Positions 707-8,949 of a DNA stretch of 8,949 bases are shown here, piece after piece. The position numbers were made by a program, and so were the translations under genes. The notes under the pieces are model-generated. The model did not search any database and had not been told where the DNA came from. It saw nothing but the letters and a program-made list of their open reading frames with translations. Numbering within the stretch: the stretch's first letter is position 1; the number at the start of each line of letters is the position of its first letter. Location of the stretch: IMG/VR virus record IMGVR_UViG_2585427710_000015; one strand, given 5' to 3'. The DNA comes from a virus (lineage: Duplodnaviria; Heunggongvirae; Uroviricota; Caudoviricetes).

Positions 707-1450
707 ATGACACAGACTGAATCAGCGATTCTGGCGCATGCCCGGCGGTGTGCGCCTGCGGAGTCGTGCGGCTTCGTGGTGAGAACGCCGGAGGGGGAGC
801 GGTATCAGCCGTGTGTGAATATCTCTGCAGAGCCGGAGGCGTATTTTCGTATTGCACCGGAAGACTGGCTGCGGGCAGAGATGCAGGGGGAGATTGTGGC
901 ACTGGTCCACAGTCATCCCGGTGGTCTGCCCTGGCTGAGCGAGGCCGACCGGCGGCTGCAGATAAAAAGTGCACTGCCCTGGTGGCTGGTCTGCCGGGGG
1001 GAAATTCACAAATTCCGCTGTGTGCCGCACCTGACCGGACGGCGCTTTGAACACGGGGTGACGGACTGTTACACCCTGTTCCGGGATGCATACCATCTGG
1101 CGGGGATTGAGATGCCGGATTTTCACCGTGAGGATGACTGGTGGCGCAACGGTCAGAACCTGTACCTGGACAATATGGAGGCCACCGGCTTTTACCGGGT
1201 GTCCCTGTCCTCTGCACAGGCAGGCGATATCCTGCTGTGCTGCTTTGGCGCATCGGTGCCGAATCATGCCGCCATTTACTGTGGCAACGGTGAGCTGCTT
1301 CACCATATACCTGAACAACTGAGTAAACGGGAGAGGTATTCAGAGAAATGGCAACGACGAACGCATTCTGTCTGGCGTCACCGCCACTGGTCCGCATCTG
1401 CCTTCACGGGGATTTACAACGATTTGGTCGCCGCATCAGTCTGTATGTGA
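707..1450 (+). CDS. K: Tail tip assembly protein K (gpK-like) with MPN/JAMM and NlpC/P60 motifs
   Basis: ATG at 707 lies 10 nt after the L stop with no obvious SD, so translational coupling is possible. The ORF runs to 1450 (247 aa). A JAMM-type motif H-S-H-x7-S-x2-D (HSHPGGLPWLSEAD) and NlpC/P60-like Cys (DCYTLF) and His (NHAAIY) are visible. The 3' end overlaps I by 103 nt in another frame, as I recall for lambda K/I. The listed ORF beginning at 446 is the same frame running back into L; 707 is the first ATG after the L stop. An internal start (e.g. the ATG at 881) cannot be excluded. Confidence 0.88.
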   Translation: MTQTESAILAHARRCAPAESCGFVVRTPEGERYQPCVNISAEPEAYFRIAPEDWLRAEMQGEIVALVHSHPGGLPWLSEADRRLQIKSALPWWLVCRGEIHKFRCVPHLTGRRFEHGVTDCYTLFRDAYHLAGIEMPDFHREDDWWRNGQNLYLDNMEATGFYRVSLSSAQAGDILLCCFGASVPNHAAIYCGNGELLHHIPEQLSKRERYSEKWQRRTHSVWRHRHWSASAFTGIYNDLVAASVCM

Positions 1451-2028
1451 ACACGGCAGCGGAGGCCATCCGTGCCCTGTCGCAGCAGGTGCCGGGATTC
1501 CGCTGTCAGATGAACGAAGGCTGGTACCAGATACGTATTGCCGGTGAGGATACCGCGCCGGAGGCGGTGTATGCCCGTCTTCATGAACCGCTGAGCGGGA
1601 GGGCCGTGATTCATATTGTACCGAGGCTGGCAGGGGCCGGGGGAAATGGTGTTTTTCAGGTGGTGCTGGGGGTTGCAGCGATTGTCGGGTCATTTTTCAC
1701 TGGTGGTGCAACACTGGCGGCATGGGGCGCAGCCCTGAGTGCCGGAGGGCTGACTGCCACCACGATGCTGTTCTCACTGGGTGCCAGCATGATACTGGGT
1801 GGTGTGGCTCAGATGCTGGCCCCGAAGGCAACGACGCCGGAGTATAAAAGCACGGATAACGGCAGACAGAACACGTATTTTTCGTCACTGGATAACATGA
1901 TTGCCCAGGGGAACCCGATGCCGGTGCCTTACGGTGAAATGCTGGTTGGTTCACGACGGATATCCCAGGACATCAGCACCCGTGATGAGGGCGGAGACGG
2001 GAAAGTGGTGGTTATCGGACGGGGATAA
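1348..2028 (+). CDS. I: Tail tip assembly protein I (gpI-like)
   Basis: 226-aa ORF. The motifs RICL.GDLQRFGRRI, AVIHIVPR.AGA and the Gly/Ala-rich hydrophobic stretch (GSFFTGGATLAAWGAA..GG.T) plus the C-terminal NTYFSSLDNM.AQGN..PV.YGEM.VGSR..SQ.IST.DEG match recalled lambda gpI. The start overlaps the K 3' end by 103 nt. Confidence 0.9.
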   Translation: MATTNAFCLASPPLVRICLHGDLQRFGRRISLYVNTAAEAIRALSQQVPGFRCQMNEGWYQIRIAGEDTAPEAVYARLHEPLSGRAVIHIVPRLAGAGGNGVFQVVLGVAAIVGSFFTGGATLAAWGAALSAGGLTATTMLFSLGASMILGGVAQMLAPKATTPEYKSTDNGRQNTYFSSLDNMIAQGNPMPVPYGEMLVGSRRISQDISTRDEGGDGKVVVIGRG

Positions 2029-2066
2029 AAATAAAAAAATCCCGCAGAGTTAGCGGAGCTGCGGGA
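2029..2066 (-). terminator. Intrinsic (rho-independent) terminator for leftward transcription, placed immediately right of the I stop codon
   Basis: Read on the minus strand: UCCCGCAG-cuccgcuaacu-CUGCGGGA followed by UUUUUUUAUUUUUAU. The stem is 8 bp and GC-rich (+ coords 2040-2047 pairing with 2059-2066), the loop 11 nt, and the U-tract is the complement of + 2029-2039. On the + strand the same hairpin is followed by AGAGAUACG with no U-run, so it terminates only leftward transcripts. Confidence 0.7.
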
Positions 2067-2127
2067 AGAGATACGAAGATTAACTGTAAGGAGTTATTAT
2101 TATGTCACAGCAAAAAAACGGTAACGC
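2029..2127 (-). ncRNA. Candidate ~95-100 nt small RNA, transcribed leftward from the promoter at 2134-2161 and ending at the terminator at 2029-2066
   Basis: A near-consensus sigma70 promoter and an intrinsic terminator on the same (minus) strand bracket about 95 nt with no plausible ORF. Predicted RNA, 5' end approximate: cugcguuaccguuuuuuugcugugacauaauaauaacuccuuacaguuaaucuucguaucucuucccgcagcuccgcuaacucugcgggauuuuuuuauuuuuau. The TSS is predicted and the RNA is hypothetical until detected. Confidence 0.4.
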
Positions 2128-2140
2128 AGAGAAATTATAA
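2102..2140 (+). CDS. Tiny ORF (12 codons, MSQQKNGNAEKL) with a strong Shine-Dalgarno; possibly a leader peptide or a remnant translation start, and possibly not expressed
   Basis: TAAGGAG at 2087-2093 is followed after 8 nt by ATG at 2102, and the ORF ends at TAA 2138-2140. The SD and the whole ORF are fully complementary to the candidate minus-strand RNA. The peptide is short and hydrophilic and does not look like a type I toxin. Confidence 0.15.
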   Translation: MSQQKNGNAEKL

Positions 2141-2161
2141 GCGCCACTGGGATTTTGTGAA
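2134..2161 (-). promoter_or_regulatory. Sigma70-like promoter on the minus strand: -35 TTCACA, 16-bp spacer, -10 TATAAT
   Basis: On the minus strand, -35 TTCACA is the reverse complement of + 2156-2161 (5/6 match to TTGACA). The 16-bp spacer is the complement of + 2140-2155. The -10 TATAAT is the complement of + 2134-2139 and is a perfect consensus hexamer. The upstream minus-strand sequence, which is the 27-bp repeat, is AT-rich and could act as an UP-like element. Predicted TSS is near + coordinate 2127. Confidence 0.55.
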
Positions 2162-2187
2162 AATGTGAAGAATTTCAGAAATTTTAT
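2161..2187. repeat. Copy 1 of a perfect 27-bp direct repeat AAATGTGAAGAATTTCAGAAATTTTAT containing a CRP-box-like TGTGA-N6-TCAGA
   Basis: Identical 27-mers occur at 2161-2187 and 2340-2366. The flanking sequence 5' of each copy is similar but degenerate (cactgggattttg versus cacgggaatttg). The core resembles the CRP consensus AAATGTGA-N6-TCACATTT, with AAATGTGA exact and TCAGA versus TCACA. Confidence 0.8.
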
Positions 2188-2339
2188 GTTGCGGAGCTGA
2201 ACTAAAAAACGCTCCCGCAATACACCTGGATATTAACGGGAGGAACGAATAGTCACCTTAAGGAGTTGCGATTAATTGCTTTTATTGACCGCAGGTAATC
2301 TACCCATCCGGCAAGGTTTCCTCCACGGGAATTTGCCGG

Positions 2340-2366
2340 AAATGTGAAGAATTTCAGAAATTTTAT
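2340..2366. repeat. Copy 2 of the perfect 27-bp direct repeat (CRP-box-like TGTGA-N6-TCAGA)
   Basis: Identical to 2161-2187 and 179 bp downstream of it. It lies 12 nt upstream of the rightward terminator hairpin and 86 nt upstream of the J start codon. Confidence 0.8.
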
Positions 2367-2377
2367 TCCGTCATGAC

Positions 2378-2409
2378 ACAGGCACCCTCCGGGGTGCCTG
2401 TCGTTTTCT
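2378..2409 (+). terminator. Intrinsic terminator on the + strand, 43 nt upstream of the J start
   Basis: Perfect 10-bp inverted repeat ACAGGCACCC (2378-2387) / GGGTGCCTGT (2392-2401) with a 4-nt loop UCCG, followed by CGUUUUCUG. On the minus strand no U-run follows the hairpin. Confidence 0.6.
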
Positions 2410-2451: not shown

Positions 2452-5400
2452 GTGGGTAAAGGGGGTGGCAAGGGGCACACACCGCGTGAGGCGAAGGACA
2501 ATCTCAAATCCACGCAGATGATGAGCGTGATTGATGCCATCGGTGAGGGACCGGTGGAAGGCCCGGTGAAGGGACTGCAGAGTATTCTGGTGAACAAAAC
2601 CCCGCTGACGGACACGGACGGTAATCCCGTGATACACGGTGTGACCGCCGTCTGGCGTGCCGGGGAGCAGGAGCAGACACCGCCGGAAGGCTTTGAGTCC
2701 TCCGGTGCTGAAACCGCACTGGGCGTGGAAGTGACGAAGGCAAAGCCGGTGACGCGCACCATTACGTCCGCGAACATTGACCGCCTGCGGGTCACCTTCG
2801 GGGTGCAGTCACTGTTGGAGACCACCTCAAAGGGCGACCGTAATCCCTCTTCTGTCCGACTGCTGATTCAGTTGCAGCGTAACGGTAACTGGGTGACGGA
2901 AAAGGATGTCACCATTAACGGCAAGACCACCTCACAGTACCTGGCGTCGGTGATTCTGGAGAATCTGCCTGAGCGGCCCTTTAACATCCGGATGGTCCGG
3001 GAGACGGCGGACAGCACCACGGACCAGCTGCAGAATAAGACGCTCTGGTCGTCATACACCGAAATCATCGATGTGAAACAGTGCTACCCGAACACGGCCA
3101 TTGTGGGGCTGCAGGTGGATGCGGAGCAGTTCGGCGGCCAGCAGATGACGGTGAACTACCATATCCGCGGTCGCATCATCCAGGTGCCGTCAAACTATGA
3201 CCCGGAAAAACGCACCTACAGCGGTATCTGGGACGGCAGCCTGAAACCGGCATACAGCAATAACCCGGCCTGGTGCCTGTGGGACATGCTGACTCACCCG
3301 CGCTACGGGATGGGAAAACGCCTGGGGGCCGCGGATGTGGACAAGTGGGCGCTGTATGCCATCGGGCAGTACTGCGACCAGACGGTCCCGGATGGTTTCG
3401 GGGGCACAGAGCCGCGGATGACCTTTAATGCGTACCTGTCACAGCAGCGTAAGGTGTGGGATGTCCTGGGGGATTTCTGCTCGGCGATGCGCTGTATGCC
3501 GGTATGGAACGGTCAGACGCTGACGTTCGTTCAGGACCGTCCGTCGGATGTGGTGTGGCCGTACACGAACAGCGATGTGGTGGTGGATGATAACGGCGTG
3601 GGGTTCCGCTACAGCTTCAGCGCCCTGAAGGACCGCCACACGGCGGTGGAGGTGAATTACACCGACCCGCAGAACGGCTGGCAGACCTCCACGGAACTGG
3701 TGGAAGACCCGGAAGCCATACTGCGCTACGGGCGCAACCTGCTGAAGATGGATGCGTTCGGCTGTACCAGCCGCGGTCAGGCCCACCGTGCCGGACTGTG
3801 GGTGATAAAGACAGAACTGCTGGAAACGCAGACGGTGGATTTCACGCTCGGGTCTCAGGGGCTGCGGCACACACCCGGTGACATCATTGAAATCTGTGAT
3901 AACGACTATGCCGGGACCCTGACCGGCGGACGCATCCTGTCCATCGATGCCGCCAGCCGCACACTGACGCTGGACCGTGAGGTGACACTGCCGGAAGCAG
4001 GTACATCGACGGTGAACCTGATTAACGGCCGTGGTAAGCCGGTGCGCGTGGACATCACTGCACAACCCGCCCCGGACCGGATACAGGTCAGCACCCTGCC
4101 TGATGGTGTGGAGACATACGGTGTATGGGGACTCTCCCTGCCGTCACTGCGTCGTCGCCTGTTCCGCTGTGTCTCCATCCGGGAAAACACGGACGGCACC
4201 TTTGCCATCACGGCGGTGCAGCACGTACCGGAAAAAGAAGCCATCGTGGATAACGGGGCCCGCTTTGAGCCGATGTCCGGCTCACTGAACAGCGTCATCC
4301 CGCCGGCGGTGCAGCACCTCACGGTGGAGGTGAGTGCCTCAGACGGCCAGTATCTGGCGCTGGCGAAATGGGACACGCCGCGGGTGGTGAAGGGTGTGCG
4401 CTTCAGTCTGCGCCTGACCAGCGGAAGCGGTGAAAACAGCCGTCTGGTGACCAGCGCCATCACTGCCGACACGGAGCACCGTTTCAGTGGCCTGCCGCCC
4501 GGGGAATACACCCTGACGGTCAGGGCGATAAACAGCTACGGCCAGCAGGGCGAACCTGCCACCACCACGTTCCGGATTAACGCACCGGCAGCACCGGCCA
4601 GCATTGAACTGACGCCGGGGTATTATCAGATAACGGCGGTCCCGCATCTTACGGTGTATGACCCGACGGTACAATTTGAGTTCTGGTTTTCGGAGGCAAA
4701 AGTCGCAGACACCGCACAGGTGGAAACGTCCGGCCGTTATCTGGGTACCGGCAGCCAGTGGAGTGTCTCCGGCCCGCACATTAAGCCCGGGAAGGATTTC
4801 TGGTTTTATGTGCGCAGCGTCAACCTGGTGGGGAAATCTGCGTTTGTGGAGGCCAGCGGGCAGGCCAGCAATGATGGTGAAGGGTATCTGGAAATTTTCC
4901 GTGGGCTGATAGATGAGGCGCTGCTGGGGAAGGCACTGAAAGAGCGTATTGATGCGTCAGCCCTGCGTACTGAGGTCACGCAACTGGAAGAAGACATCCG
5001 CCAGCGGCTGGAGACGGATGTTGCGGAAGTGACCCGAAAAATCGGGGAGGCGGAAAACAGCCTCACGCAGCTGGTTGCGAAAAAGAATGAGGACCAGACG
5101 CTGGCCATCGCGCAGGTGAGTCAGCAGGTGGACCGGGTGAGCAGTGAAATCACACAGACAGTCAGCCAGAGCACGGAGGAAAACGCCAGGCAGATAGCGC
5201 AGGTCCGCCAGTACGTGGATGACAAAGGGAGTGAAATCACCTCGACCACGGATAAAAAGCTGGAAGACCAGAGCGCGACCATACAGCAGATACAGCAGGT
5301 CCAGTCAGACACGAATGATGAGCTGGCAGCGCTGTACATGCTGAAGGTGCAGAAAACGAAAAACGGCATTCCGTATGTTGCCGGTATTGGTGCGGGGATT

Positions 5401-6147
5401 GAGGATGCTGATGGCCAGACGCTGAGCAATATTCTGCTGCAGGCGGACCGTATCGCGATGATTACCCCGGAGAACGGCAACACCACGCCGCTATTTGTGG
5501 CGCAGGGGAATCAGTTGTTCATGAACGATGTGTTCCTGAAGCGGCTGTTTGCGGTGAGTATCACCTCGTCCGGCAATCCCCCGACGTTTTCCCTGACGCC
5601 GGAGGGCAGGCTGACGGCCCGCAATGCGGACATCAGCGGACATATCAGTGCGAACTCGGGCACGCTCAATAATGTTGTGATAGCGGAGAACTGTACGATA
5701 AATGGCACGCTGAAAGCGGGAAACATCATCGGGGATCTTATCAAGGGCGGGAGTGGCGCTTTCCCGCGTCAGAATGAGGGCAGTGTGAACTGGCCTTCCG
5801 GAACGCGCACGTTCACTGTGTATGATGATCACCCGTTTGACCGCCAGATAGTGGTACTTCCGCTGACATTTCGCGGAAGCAGGCGTACCGACAGCGGCAG
5901 AACAACATATTCGATGTGTTATCTGAAGGTGCTGATGAACGGTGCAGTGATTTATGACGGCGTGGCGAATGATGCACCTCAGGTTTTCGCCCGAATTGTG
6001 GATATGCGTGCGGGAGGTGGACACGTAACCCTGACATTCACGGTCACGTCCACACGGCATTCGGGAAATATTCCGCCGGATACGTTTGCCAGTGATGTAC
6101 AGGTTCTTGTGATGAAAAAGGGGGCATCAGGTATCAGTATCAGCTGA
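2452..6147 (+). CDS. J: Central tail fibre / host specificity protein J (gpJ-like), 1231 aa
   Basis: GTG start at 2452, preceded by AGGAG at 2436-2440 and a G-rich stretch. The N-terminus [22 protein letters not shown] and the protein throughout are collinear with recalled lambda gpJ (1132 aa). The C-terminus (...[21 protein letters not shown]) is also lambda-like. There is about 100 aa of extra heptad-like sequence around residues 809-980 relative to lambda. Confidence 0.95.
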
Positions 6148-6166: not shown

Positions 6167-6190
6167 GGCACCCGAAGTGGTGCCTTTTTT
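6167..6190 (+). terminator. Intrinsic terminator after J
   Basis: Stem GGCACC (6167-6172) / GGUGCC (6179-6184), 6-nt loop, followed by UUUUUUAUU (6185-6193). It starts 20 nt after the J stop (TGA 6145-6147). Confidence 0.6.
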
Positions 6191-6215
6191 ATTGACTGAA
6201 AACAAAGAGGTAATC

Positions 6216-6839
6216 ATGCGGTATTTATACGGAGCCATTTTATTTTTTACCACCCTGCCGGCAGTAATGACTTTTCCTGCACAGGCTGCAGGCGGACACG
6301 GTGCATTTTCCGTTGGATATGCTCAGGTTCACCCGGGCGGCGTGCCGGTATTGTCCGGTACCGGTGCCCGTACAGGTGATTTAAAAGGGATCAACGTGAA
6401 ATACCGTTATGAATTCACGGACCATCTGGGCGGCATAGCCTCGCTGAGTTACGCCTCTGCGAAAAAGAGCAGAACCACGATGACCGGGGATAAGGCATTT
6501 CATTATGAAAGTCTGCGTGGCCGTTATGTGAGCCTGATGGCGGGGCCGGTCTGGCAGGTCAGTGAGCAGCTCAGTCTTTATGGCATGGCCGGGATGGCGC
6601 ACACCCGCTGGTCTGACAGTGTTCAGGATTACCGGCGTGATGAAGTGACACCGGGGGATGTCAGGGTGACCACCACTGCCAGTGATGGCCATTCTGCACG
6701 TCATCTGACGCTGGCATGGGGGGCAGGGCTTCAGTTTAATCCGGCGGATACGGTGGCGGTTGATCTTGCGTACGAAGTGGCCGGTCATGGTGACTGGCGA
6801 ACGGATGCGTTTATTGTTGGGATTGGATACCGTTTCTGA
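6216..6839 (+). CDS. lom: Lom-like outer membrane protein (Ail/Lom/PagC/Rck family beta-barrel), a lysogenic-conversion moron
   Basis: ATG at 6216 with AAAGAGG 5 nt upstream. N-terminal signal peptide MRYLYGAILFFTTLPAVMTFPAQA followed by AGGHG. GGHG.F.VGY.QV.PG, LKGINVKYRYE.TD, FHYESLRGRYVS.MAGPV, GDWRTD.FIVG.GY.F match recalled lambda Lom. The position between J and stf matches lambda. The longer ORF from 6177 lacks an RBS and would begin inside the terminator's U-tract. Confidence 0.85.
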   Translation: MRYLYGAILFFTTLPAVMTFPAQAAGGHGAFSVGYAQVHPGGVPVLSGTGARTGDLKGINVKYRYEFTDHLGGIASLSYASAKKSRTTMTGDKAFHYESLRGRYVSLMAGPVWQVSEQLSLYGMAGMAHTRWSDSVQDYRRDEVTPGDVRVTTTASDGHSARHLTLAWGAGLQFNPADTVAVDLAYEVAGHGDWRTDAFIVGIGYRF

Positions 6840-6990: not shown

Positions 6991-8949
6991 ATGACGGTTA
7001 AAATTTCTGGTGTGCTGAAGGACGGGGCCGGTAAGCCGGTACCGGGATGCACGATAGAGCTGAAAGCGCGACGCACAACGGAGACGGTGATTGTCACCAC
7101 GGTGGCGTATGGTCAGCCGGGGGAAACCGGCAGTTACAGTATGGATGTTGAGCCGGGGTTGTACCGGGTGACGCTGAACACGGAAGGGTACGCGCCGTCA
7201 TATGTGGGTGACATTCTGGTGAAGGCGGACTCTGCACCGGGAACGCTGAATAAATTTCTGATGGACCTGGAGGACGCACAGTATTACCCGAAAGCCCTTG
7301 CAGAGCTGGAAGCGGTGGCCGCGGAAATCCTGAAACGTGCGGAAGCGTCAGCGGCGAGTGCAGAGGAAGCGAAGAAACGGGCAGAGAATGCGCGGGGACC
7401 GAAGGGGGATAAGGGAGACACCGGGCCACAGGGTATTCCCGGGCCAAAAGGCGATACCGGCGAGCGGGGGCCAAAGGGTGAGCGTGGTGAGAGGGGGCCG
7501 CAGGGGCTTCAGGGTGTGAAAGGTGAACGGGGAGAGAAGGGCGAAAAAGGCGAGCCGGGAGGACCGGATGCGACGACGGCACAGAAGGGAATTGTGCAGT
7601 TAAGCAGCGCAACGGACAGTGATGATGAAACGAAGGCAGCCACCCCGAAAGCGGTGAAAGCGGCAATGGACAAAGCGGACGGATGCCTGGAGAAAGCGAA
7701 AAACGGTGACGATATCCCGGATAAGGTGCAGTTTCTGAACACTGTGGGAGCAGCCAGAGTATACGGGCGGGACATTCATACGGGGGCCGGTGAATGGACC
7801 ACGAGCGAGTTTGTCGCCTGGCTGAAAGCCAAAGGGGCATTTGACCAGCCTTACTGGATGATGAAGGCATCACTGCATGCGGGATTCAATAAGGTCATCA
7901 CGGATGTCGGACCGGGAAAACTTAATCTGGGTGGCTGTGTCATTGAGGTGATGGGGAAGTATGAGGCAGCCATAGTCCGGGTCACCATTGGCGAATACGG
8001 TGCAACGGGGTTTATTAATGGCACGGTCTGTACCTGTACGGTTTACGGCGACACACAGTATTTCCACTGGCGGGTGGATTACAGCACAAAAAACAAACCG
8101 GATACGGTCAGCCAGCGGGATGCCAGCACGACGCAGAAAGGTGTGGTGCAGTTAAGCAGTGATACTGGCAGTAATGACGAAACAAAGGCAGCCACGCCGA
8201 AGGCCGTGAAGGCGGCAATGGATGTGGCAAATGAAGCGAAAACAAAGGCAGAAGAGGCTGCAGCAGGAGGTGGTGTTCCCGGTCCGAAAGGAGATAAAGG
8301 GGACACGGGGCCGGCAGGTCCGGCTGGGCCGAGGGGCCCTCAGGGACCAAAGGGGGATACTGGCGCTCCCGGGGCAAAAGGTGAGAAAGGAGCCACCGGC
8401 GCAACCGGGCCACAGGGAGCAAAAGGGGATAAAGGTGATCCCGGCCCTCAGGGACCAAAGGGGGATGCTGGCGCTCCCGGGGCAAAAGGTGAGAAAGGAG
8501 CCACCGGCGCAACCGGGCCACAGGGAGCAAAAGGGGATAAAGGTGATCCCGGCCCTCAGGGACCAAAGGGGGATACTGGCGCTCCTGGGGCAAAAGGTGA
8601 GAAAGGAGCCACCGGCGCAACCGGGCCACAGGGACCAAAAGGGGATAAAGGTGATCCCGGTCCCCGGGGGGCAACAGGCCCACAGGGACCAGCTGGCTCA
8701 CCGGCAGGTGGTTTGCATGCTGTTGGGGCATTTGTCTTTGCTCAGGCCAGTATAAGTAACAGTGAAAAATATGCCGCAGGTGCCGTGCTTGCGGGAAGTA
8801 AACTGAGAGAATGTAGCATTCAACTGGGCTCTCAGAAAGCAGCCACATTAACCGGTAATACACTGCCAGGAACATGGCGGGTCTGTAGTCCACTTCAGGT
8901 CAGTTCAATATATCCTTACTGTGTGGGGCTGTTTCAGCGTATATCGTGA
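6991..8949 (+). CDS. stf: Side tail fibre protein (Stf-like) with collagen-like Gly-X-Y repeat blocks, 652 aa; the stop codon is the last three bases of the window
   Basis: The N-terminus [28 protein letters not shown] matches recalled lambda Stf ([26 protein letters not shown]). Two copies of the lambda-Stf-like motif [26 protein letters not shown] occur at nt 7573-7677 and 8125-8223. Collagen-like G-X-Y blocks lie at about 7393-7567 and 8269-8710. TGA at 8947-8949 ends the ORF exactly at the window edge, so downstream context such as a tfa gene cannot be seen. Confidence 0.85.
8341..8664. repeat. Three near-identical tandem copies of a 108-bp unit (36 aa, [36 protein letters not shown]) inside the stf collagen-like block
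   Basis: Copies at 8341-8448, 8449-8556 and 8557-8664 differ at only a few positions (gatact/gatgct, ctccc/ctcct, ggagcaaaa/ggaccaaaa). Found by direct reading. Confidence 0.9.

Follow-up and report, generated by a model that had tools for sequence, protein, structure and literature searches.

We analysed an 8,949-nucleotide stretch of viral DNA (IMG/VR record IMGVR_UViG_2585427710_000015; hereafter the window), which comes from a lambdoid prophage and spans its tail region in the order L, K, I, spacer, J, Lom and tail fibre. Pfam searches placed L at 58-696 and K at 446-1450, before I and J (Table 1), and an Ail/Lom protein at 6177-6839 and a collagen-repeat tail fibre from 6991 after them. 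DNA nearly identical to the window was present in Escherichia coli chromosomes, many of them from Shiga-toxin-producing strains, and in Shiga toxin (Stx)-converting phages. The subject of this study is a 27-bp element, AAATGTGAAGAATTTCAGAAATTTTAT, of which both copies, at 2161-2187 and 2340-2366, fall inside the I-J spacer of 423 bp, and the small RNA (sRNA) genes that follow it on the minus strand.

Sequence comparison confirmed that the 27-mer occurs twice without a mismatch, as the initial annotation had reported; the chance expectation for an exact repeat of this length in 8.9 kb is about 2e-9. In a repeat search the match widened to 44 nt at 86% identity, and a second block, at 71% identity, joined 2068-2102 to 2240-2274. 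The shared TAAGGAGTT at 2087-2095 and 2259-2267 and the diverged 5' flanks of the core, cactgggattttg and cacgggaatttg, were likewise found as annotated. When the units 2029-2187 (159 bp) and 2188-2366 (179 bp) were aligned globally, the 27-mer was 100% identical and the remainder 54%. The spacer had been described as a diverged tandem duplication of about 175 bp. It does hold repeated, diverged units, with a period of 179 bp, but these are two paralogous sRNA cassettes of different types, and duplication in situ did not stand up to comparison with other prophages. The two units are not each other's nearest relatives, as they would be after a simple tandem duplication: outside the 27-mer unit 1 shares only the above 54% with unit 2, whereas it is 92-98% identical to single-copy PasB units elsewhere, and both cassette types recur in other combinations in other prophages.

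The I-J spacers used for this comparison were gathered independently of the motif, by anchoring on the N-terminus of J in IMG/VR, and were supplemented with E. coli genome loci. They fell into classes of 238-263, 421-483, 712-715 and 907-929 bp, which correspond to one, two, three and four cassettes, and in every array examined each cassette was headed by the operator element. Clustering of the unit bodies gave the array types A (27 loci), A-B (5 loci, including the window), A-A-B (2) and A-A-C-A (5), and also D-B and E. The nearest relatives of window unit 2 were type-B units of other arrays, about 70% identical to it. Judged from these alignments, each 27-mer of the window heads a cassette of its own; the two cassettes are paralogous but differ in type, which accounts for the operator being present twice. 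An exact-pattern scan of IMG/VR found 130 motif matches, 129 of them in an I-J context; the single match off the locus was within an open reading frame of an unrelated AT-rich phage.

Unit 1 could be assigned to a published sRNA. It aligns over its full length with the I-J spacers of prophage PP6 of enteropathogenic E. coli (EPEC) E2348/69, of VT1-Sakai and of phage 1720a-02, which are about 240 bp long and have one unit each. PasB of E2348/69 (NC_011601, 1466343..1466261) is an Hfq-dependent RNA of 83 nt that was validated by Northern blotting (Pearl Mizrahi et al., 2021). It maps onto the single spacer unit, and its probe, AATCCCGCAGTGATCGCGGAGCT, is antisense to the terminator region of that unit. 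EcOnc22, EcOnc23 and EcOnc24 are peaks obtained by crosslinking and analysis of cDNA with Hfq (Hfq-CRAC) in enterohaemorrhagic E. coli (EHEC) Sakai, about 85 nt long and destabilised without Hfq (Tree et al., 2014); their Northern probe, which begins GGGAGAGAACGATGAAGATTAAC, is the plus strand of the VT1-Sakai spacer. On the strength of the PasB mapping and the probe matches we therefore identify unit 1, by homology, as a minus-strand homologue of PasB (EcOnc22/23/24). Hfq binding and Hfq-dependent stability have been demonstrated for its EPEC and EHEC homologues. The locus between tail genes I and J, the antisense orientation, the alignment of the whole unit, the Rho-independent terminator AGCTCCGC..CTGCGGGATTTTTTT (the PasB probe target) and the body (the EcOnc22/23/24 probe target) are all shared; the PasB and EcOnc papers describe the RNA without a promoter, and the operator, control by CRP and a tandem array of cassettes are not mentioned there. 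Thus the candidate sRNA of the initial annotation corresponds to a published RNA and is not new.

Other identities were considered for unit 1 and rejected. The EcOnc22 coordinates of Tree et al. are offset from pasB by about 137-146 bp between genome versions, as calibrated on AgvB; this offset explains the apparent position of EcOnc22 on the plus-strand hairpin rather than on pasB, and the probe sequence settled the identity. The anti-sRNAs AgvB and AsxR (Tree et al., 2014) resemble the present case in being prophage 'moron' sRNAs at a fixed genome position, in which one part is common to the family and another differs, giving variants with different target specificity. They are, however, located downstream of PR' and not between I and J, have another sequence and do not form tandem arrays with a common upstream operator; Rfam detected AgvB in Sakai Sp10 and nothing in the spacer. 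No Rfam RNA family was matched by the spacer: the Sakai I-J spacer gave no hit at the gathering threshold, and at a permissive threshold the best hits in 1900-2600 of the window (rseX, GadY and others) reached at most 21 bits against thresholds of 39-99, which is the level of chance.

The second copy of the 27-mer had been linked to J by its distance from the start codon. It belongs instead to the second minus-strand cassette, for which an sRNA of type B, with a different body and terminator, is predicted at about 2290..2203; that this cassette is expressed is inferred from its sequence. The fold of sRNA 1 has an energy of -17.3 kcal/mol (z = -3.4), and the terminator scan called its terminator at 2057..2041 on the minus strand. 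In sRNA 2 the terminator hairpin was seen, but the z-score of the whole RNA was only -0.5. A hairpin at 2189-2220 was rejected as the terminator of unit 2, since comparison of the type-B units places the terminator (CTCCCG..CGGGAG and a T run) at 2204-2242. The body of unit 2 had no match in the phage collection, and a full match was found in only 27 of 5426 E. coli genomes; we found no published counterpart of this sRNA.

On the transcribed strand the TAAGGAGTT shared by the two units reads AACUCCUUA, and some type-B units carry ACCUCCUUA (L005:832-1071). The latter is identical to the 3' end of 16S rRNA, and the sRNAs of the cassettes may therefore pair with Shine-Dalgarno (SD) sequences. 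A seed immediately upstream of the terminator has been proposed instead (Zhu et al., 2026, preprint).

The conservation of the cassette heads was examined in 33 distinct promoter variants, all of them homologues from closely related Escherichia phages. Positions were numbered along the minus strand, i1 being the first base of the reverse-complemented 27-mer. The element itself (i1-27) reads ATAAAATT-TCTGA-N6-TCACA-TTT and is followed by a variable stretch (i28-40), GTRGC (i41-45), a -10-like box, P1, with the sequence TATAAT, AATAAT or CATAAT (i49-54), and GCGT-TAnnnT (i61-70), which contains a second -10 box, P2, with a G at -14. P2 is followed by a U run, the CUCCUUA-containing body and, last, the terminator. 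The pairwise identity was 0.99-1.00 in the pentamers, 0.77 in N6 and 0.86 in the A/T tail (i1-8), and it fell to 0.52 in the 13 bp of i28-40 and to 0.46 in i55-60. Only 1 of 10 columns varied in the half-sites, against 5 of 6 in N6 (Fisher p = 0.008) and 21 of 21 in i28-48 (Fisher p = 5e-7), and the distance from the operator to the minus-strand -10 box was constant in 32 of the 33 variants. The pentamers are thus constrained while the centre between them is free, a pattern to be expected where a dimeric protein binds DNA. The initial annotation had suggested a protein-binding site from the selective conservation of the core in the window; the wider sample agrees with this, and the homologues do keep the element. 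We conclude that the 27-mer is very probably the operator of the cassette promoters.

Two conserved -10-like boxes thus lie 16 bp apart before each sRNA, P1 (nATAAT) and P2 (TAnnnT with G at -14). P1 is the promoter proposed initially, with TTCACA at 2161..2156 and TATAAT at 2139..2134 on the minus strand (11 of 12 in the promoter scan); transcription would start near 2127 and the centre of the site would be at -44.5. Several observations point to P2. As TAnnnT at i65-70 it is present in 32 of the 33 variants, and it is the sole box kept in window unit 2. P1, scored as nAnnnT, is present in 30 and was lost in window unit 2, where its register reads AACCTT, and in two other variants. In the portion of the published E2348/69 data used here, the 5' end of PasB is given as 1466343 (table S6), that is i76, and the 5'-most fragment end from ligating and sequencing interacting RNAs (RIL-seq) is 1466344, or i75, with no fragment in that portion further upstream; both lie 5-7 nt past the P2 box. 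The expected length of the RNA is 78-83 nt from P2 and 94-98 nt from P1, and the Northern signals of 83-85 nt fit P2; the EcOnc22 band was at about 85 nt (Tree et al., 2014).

P2, 16 bp downstream of P1, would therefore set the start at i77 and move the centre of the site to about -60.5, with a 17-bp promoter spacer. The initial annotation had been right in placing copy 1 upstream of the promoter of a minus-strand sRNA, but the distance of about 44 bp to the transcription start site (TSS) would be replaced by this value. Since P1 is conserved, it may be a second, tandem promoter; tandem promoters that answer oppositely to the upstream site, as at gal, would be one possible reason for its conservation. 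Readings of TCTGA or TTCACA as sigma-E -10, sigma-32 or sigma-54 elements were rejected on inspection, as the partner elements were absent or the spacing was wrong.

We then compared the operator with binding sites of CRP. The matrix was symmetrised and built from 17 textbook sites, not from RegulonDB. With this matrix the 22-mer AAATGTGAAGAATTTCAGAAAT scored 17.1 bits, above every one of the training sites (leave-one-out scores 1.1-15.6, median 12.0), and all natural variants of the element scored 13.0-17.5 bits. The two 27-mer copies were the top matches in the window, and about 5e-6 of random positions score as high. In AAATGTGA-AGAATT-TCAGAAAT the left arm agrees with the CRP consensus at 8 of 8 positions and the right pentamer at 4 of 5. 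The core is therefore a symmetric 22-bp site of the CRP type whose score, on the textbook sites, does not fall below those of accepted ones, and the CRP-like core with one mismatch and a consensus 5' arm, noted at the outset, was confirmed.

If P2 is used, the geometry would also be that of class I CRP-dependent promoters. From the dyad centre to the first base of the -35 position of P2 there are 25.5 bp, the same as at lac. Productive CRP sites are centred near -61.5 or a helical repeat away from it (class I), or at -41.5 (class II); here the centre is at -60.5 for P2 and at -44.5 for P1, with a start known from possibly processed ends in E2348/69. At a promoter with a 17-bp spacer, -60.5 is the equivalent of -61.5 at lac, and in the lac context this position gives -2.1 kcal/mol, or about 30-fold cooperativity (Forcier et al., 2018; PMC6301791); the same paper quotes an activation of 3.85-fold from Gaston et al. 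A weak -35 (TGGCGC, TAGCCG) combined with a -10 that has a G at -14 is, we infer, typical of an activator-assisted promoter. In EPEC, PasB was higher in overnight static lysogeny broth (LB) than in mid-log DMEM, while Spot 42, which is repressed by CRP, was about 5-fold higher in DMEM, the opposite of PasB. On the sequence and the geometry, we lean towards the view that the element is a class I CRP-cAMP (cyclic AMP) activator site common to all cassettes.

Several points weigh against this assignment. The matrix was not drawn from a curated collection of sites. In practically all variants the right pentamer reads TCAGA, and the stronger TCACA never occurs, which would be surprising if selection acted on affinity for CRP only. 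The neighbours of the pentamers (TGTGAa, tTCAGA) and the ATAAAA tail beyond the 22-mer are also conserved, although CRP has no evident need of them. The conservation is partly due to shared ancestry, all homologues being from closely related phages. The start was derived from 5' ends that RNA-seq and RIL-seq gave for a different strain and that processing may have produced, and if P1 were the true -10, a centre at -44.5 would be non-canonical for CRP. The expression pattern of PasB in LB and DMEM fits activation by CRP, but it fits stationary-phase or low-oxygen control equally. A PasB promoter or control of PasB by CRP was not found in the searchable literature.

The invariant TCAGA would be accommodated by another protein, either a prophage regulator or a different host factor, that recognises TGTGAA-N4-TTCAGA and for which the likeness to CRP sites is partial. 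The extra conservation (A after TGTGA in 30 of 33 variants, T before TCAGA in 32 of 33, ATAAAA outside the 22-mer) and the restriction of the motif to a single phage locus agree with this. We nevertheless regard it as unlikely, for the left half with its flank, AAATGTGA, is the CRP consensus, the spacing to P2 is that of class I, and no better candidate emerged among the consensus sequences that were compared by eye. In that comparison FNR (consensus TTGAT-N4-ATCAA), Cra, the RcsB box, TyrR, ArcA, OmpR, PhoP, IHF, Fis and Lrp all fitted worse than CRP; of a Cra site only the core TGAA-N4-TTCA was matched, the required central C-G being absent and the centre variable and A/T-rich. The choice of promoter bears on a further explanation, in which P1 is used and the 27-mer, then at -60 to -34, serves as an upstream (UP)-like or otherwise atypical element, or else lets CRP, bound at -44.5, switch from one of the two promoters to the other as at gal. 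The perfect TATAAT of cassette 1, its scan score and its presence in most variants speak for it, and ATAAAATTTCT resembles the distal UP subsite consensus (AWWWWWTTTTT). Nevertheless, P1 is lost in window unit 2 and in two other variants and P2 is kept in 32 of 33, the published 5' end and RIL-seq fragments, as far as the portion used here goes, stop at the P2 start, and the Northern length fits P2. A site at -44.5 is not productive for CRP. The UP-like element, which was also part of the initial annotation, fails on the invariant G/C positions (C10, G12, C21 and C23), which are unexpected in an UP element; moreover, the position fits under P1 only, and the proximal subsite has no A tract. We consider the use of P1 in either form improbable.

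Perfect identity of the two copies could also lack regulatory meaning and stem from recent duplication, gene conversion or unequal crossing-over, the 27-mer being a patch of homology through which cassettes are gained and lost. The arrays do vary in size (1-4) and order (A, A-B, A-A-B, A-A-C-A, D-B), which implies recombination between repeats, and the J-proximal copy is often exactly this 27-mer. Within arrays, however, the copies differ solely in N6 and the A/T tail, whereas conversion would homogenise whole tracts, and fixed half-sites around a free spacer are the mark of a dimeric DNA-binding protein; we give this explanation little credence and think it more likely that recombination follows from the conserved operator than that the operator exists for it. 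The least probable of the possibilities, in our view very unlikely, is an action in the plus-strand late RNA or on J, about 100 bp downstream of copy 2; the element and the hairpin after it might, for instance, jointly signal processing or termination. The J-proximal copy is indeed always followed by a conserved and very stable plus-strand hairpin with a T run, but the internal copies, such as the one at 2161-2187, precede unrelated sequence and have no conserved pairing partner. In addition, 32 of the 33 variants keep the element at a constant distance from the minus-strand -10 boxes, and a reading of the sequence by eye revealed no plausible plus-strand promoter downstream of copy 2.

The following picture emerges. 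The 27-mer is very probably the common cis-regulatory operator of PasB-family sRNA cassettes, which occupy the I-J interval of lambdoid prophages, many of them Stx-converting, and are oriented against the late operon. Along the minus strand each cassette begins with the operator, after which come a weak -35 and a -10 that has G at -14; the sRNA, about 80-90 nt long and containing the anti-SD-like CUCCUUA, and a Rho-independent terminator complete it. Copy 1 serves the PasB homologue (2111..2033) and copy 2 the second predicted sRNA (2290..2203). If the element is a CRP site, host CRP-cAMP would bind about 60.5 bp upstream of the start, at the lac-like distance from the -35, and would recruit RNA polymerase through the C-terminal domain of its alpha subunit, as a class I activator. 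Upon exhaustion of glucose, all cassettes of an array would be switched on together.

The lac P1 promoter is a class I CRP-dependent promoter, and CyaR and McaS are Hfq sRNAs activated by CRP. Like promoters of the lac type, the cassettes have a 22-bp site, in which the left arm is a perfect AAATGTGA and the right pentamer matches at 4 of 5 positions, 25.5 bp between centre and the P2 -35, a weak -35, and conserved half-sites with a free spacer. Unlike them, the putative CRP site described here has a right arm fixed as TCAGA, a conserved P1 box lies between the site and the P2 -10, making tandem promoters possible, and the operator recurs in as many as four successive cassettes. The features of the two cassettes are listed in Table 1.

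Table 1. Features of the I-J spacer and its borders (positions in the window; in the descriptions, operators, promoter elements and sRNA 2 are predictions)
Feature	Position	Strand	Description and evidence
Tail assembly protein I gene	1348..2028	+	Left border of the spacer; Pfam Lambda_tail_I, 1.2e-14
sRNA 1, PasB / EcOnc22-24 homologue, type A	2033..2111	-	Alignment, probe matches, terminator scan, fold
sRNA 1 terminator	Hairpin 2040-2066, U run 2033-2039	-	Terminator scan
sRNA 1 anti-SD-like AACUCCUUA	2095..2087	-	
P2 -10 box, cassette 1	2118..2123	-	TACCGT, G at -14; predicted TSS is G at 2111
P1 box, cassette 1	2134..2139	-	TATAAT; would start transcription near 2127; promoter scan 11/12
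-35-like element, cassette 1	2141-2146	-	Weak, TGGCGC
27-mer copy 1	2161..2187	-	Very probable operator upstream of cassette 1; exact repeat, half-sites, matrix score
Copy 1, CRP-like 22-mer	2161-2182		TGTGA-N6-TCAGA at 2164-2179 (TGTGA 2164-2168, TCAGA 2175-2179); dyad centre 2171.5
Predicted sRNA 2, type B	2203..2290	-	Clusters with type-B units of other arrays
sRNA 2 terminator	Hairpin 2212-2242, U run 2204-2209	-	CTCCCG..CGGGAG plus T run; fold
sRNA 2 CAACUCCUUAAGG	2268..2256	-	
P2 -10 box, cassette 2	2297..2302	-	TAGATT; predicted TSS is G at 2290
-35 position, cassette 2	2320-2325	-	TGGAGG
27-mer copy 2	2340..2366	-	Very probable operator upstream of cassette 2; TGTGA-N6-TCAGA at 2343-2358 (TGTGA 2343-2347, TCAGA 2354-2358); dyad centre 2350.5
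GC-rich hairpin, then CGTTTTCT	2378..2401, T run to 2407	+	Between last operator and J start; terminator scan
Tail tip protein J gene	2452..6147	+	Right border of the spacer; Pfam FNIII-A_GpJ, 9e-42; RefSeq annotation of near-identical prophages

The variation between arrays allows a more general proposal, which we put forward tentatively and consider possible rather than probable. The I-J spacer may be an array that can expand, its one to four cassettes for Hfq sRNAs having a common operator and promoter of the CRP type and differing bodies and seeds; it would couple variable post-transcriptional regulators to cAMP, and the cassettes would be gained, lost and swapped by recombination through the operator and the terminator. 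Tandem sRNA paralogues with a common regulator are known from OmrA/OmrB, PrrF1/PrrF2 and Qrr1-4, which are likewise adjacent genes with related promoters and diverged bodies. In contrast to these, the cassettes described here are borne by prophages, on the opposite strand within a tail operon, and the number of units (1-4) differs among closely related phages. In the preprint of Zhu et al. (2026) the smallest spacing between pasB copies on one chromosome is 28 kb, and the word 'promoter' is absent from its text.

We also noticed that in the longer arrays some 65-75 nt of additional sequence separate the terminator of an internal cassette from the operator that follows (L004:416-869, L005:602-1071, L006:631-867). 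Cassettes of one type have this sequence in conserved form, such as ...CCCGGCATGATG..TTCTGTCCTCTGCCAC..., and in window unit 2 the corresponding sequence is only about 15 nt long (2188-2202).

The plus-strand hairpin between the last operator and J folds with -25.8 kcal/mol (z = -4.9). It was found in all spacers that bear cassettes; the E2348/69 version retains the stem and has a different loop. The hairpin looks like a terminator for plus-strand transcription, placed upstream of the ribosome-binding site of J. In nine related prophages the I-J spacer is 854 bp long (L009:134-987; also L052, L063, L067, L068, L078, L090, L109 and L122); here the terminator end of PasB is kept, and the promoter and the 27-mer are replaced by a minus-strand gene for a Cu/Zn superoxide dismutase (Pfam Sod_Cu, 3.9e-32). 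By its appearance, then, the I-J junction is a hot-spot where antisense 'moron' cargo is inserted more generally.

Two further observations concern the neighbouring genes. The tail-fibre gene (6991-8949) contains long collagen-like Gly-X-Y repeats (Pfam Collagen) with DNA periodicities of 36 bp and 108 bp, and identities of 94-99% were found among the copies at 8335-8458, 8443-8566 and 8551-8674. A scan of genome contigs with J gave mainly lambda J, apparently a contaminant of unrelated assemblies. Sequences resembling J, about 79% identical to the query, were found there on contigs that are short and in many cases of low coverage, from assemblies under the names Streptomyces, Bacillota, Bradyrhizobium, Shewanella and others (L011-L047); these are most simply explained as contaminating DNA of phage lambda or E. 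coli.

The sRNA itself had been described before (Tree et al., 2014; Pearl Mizrahi et al., 2021; Zhu et al., 2026, preprint). In the searchable PasB and EcOnc literature we found no account of an operator shared by the cassettes, of its likeness to CRP sites and its class I geometry, or of arrays of up to four cassettes with different bodies. The array organisation is a more novel aspect than the probable CRP-dependent sRNA promoter, and the general understanding of CRP or of sRNA promoters would stay unchanged. PasB / EcOnc22-24, which is encoded by EPEC and EHEC prophages, is abundant, bound by Hfq and linked to many partners by RIL-seq, and it now has a candidate control element and, in CRP-cAMP, a candidate regulator; its locus often holds several unrecognised paralogous cassettes, which appear to stand under copies of one operator. 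If this is true, surveys that count PasB-like sequences alone would underestimate the sRNA content of these prophages, and carbon-source sensing would be wired into prophage riboregulation in Shiga-toxin-producing and related E. coli.

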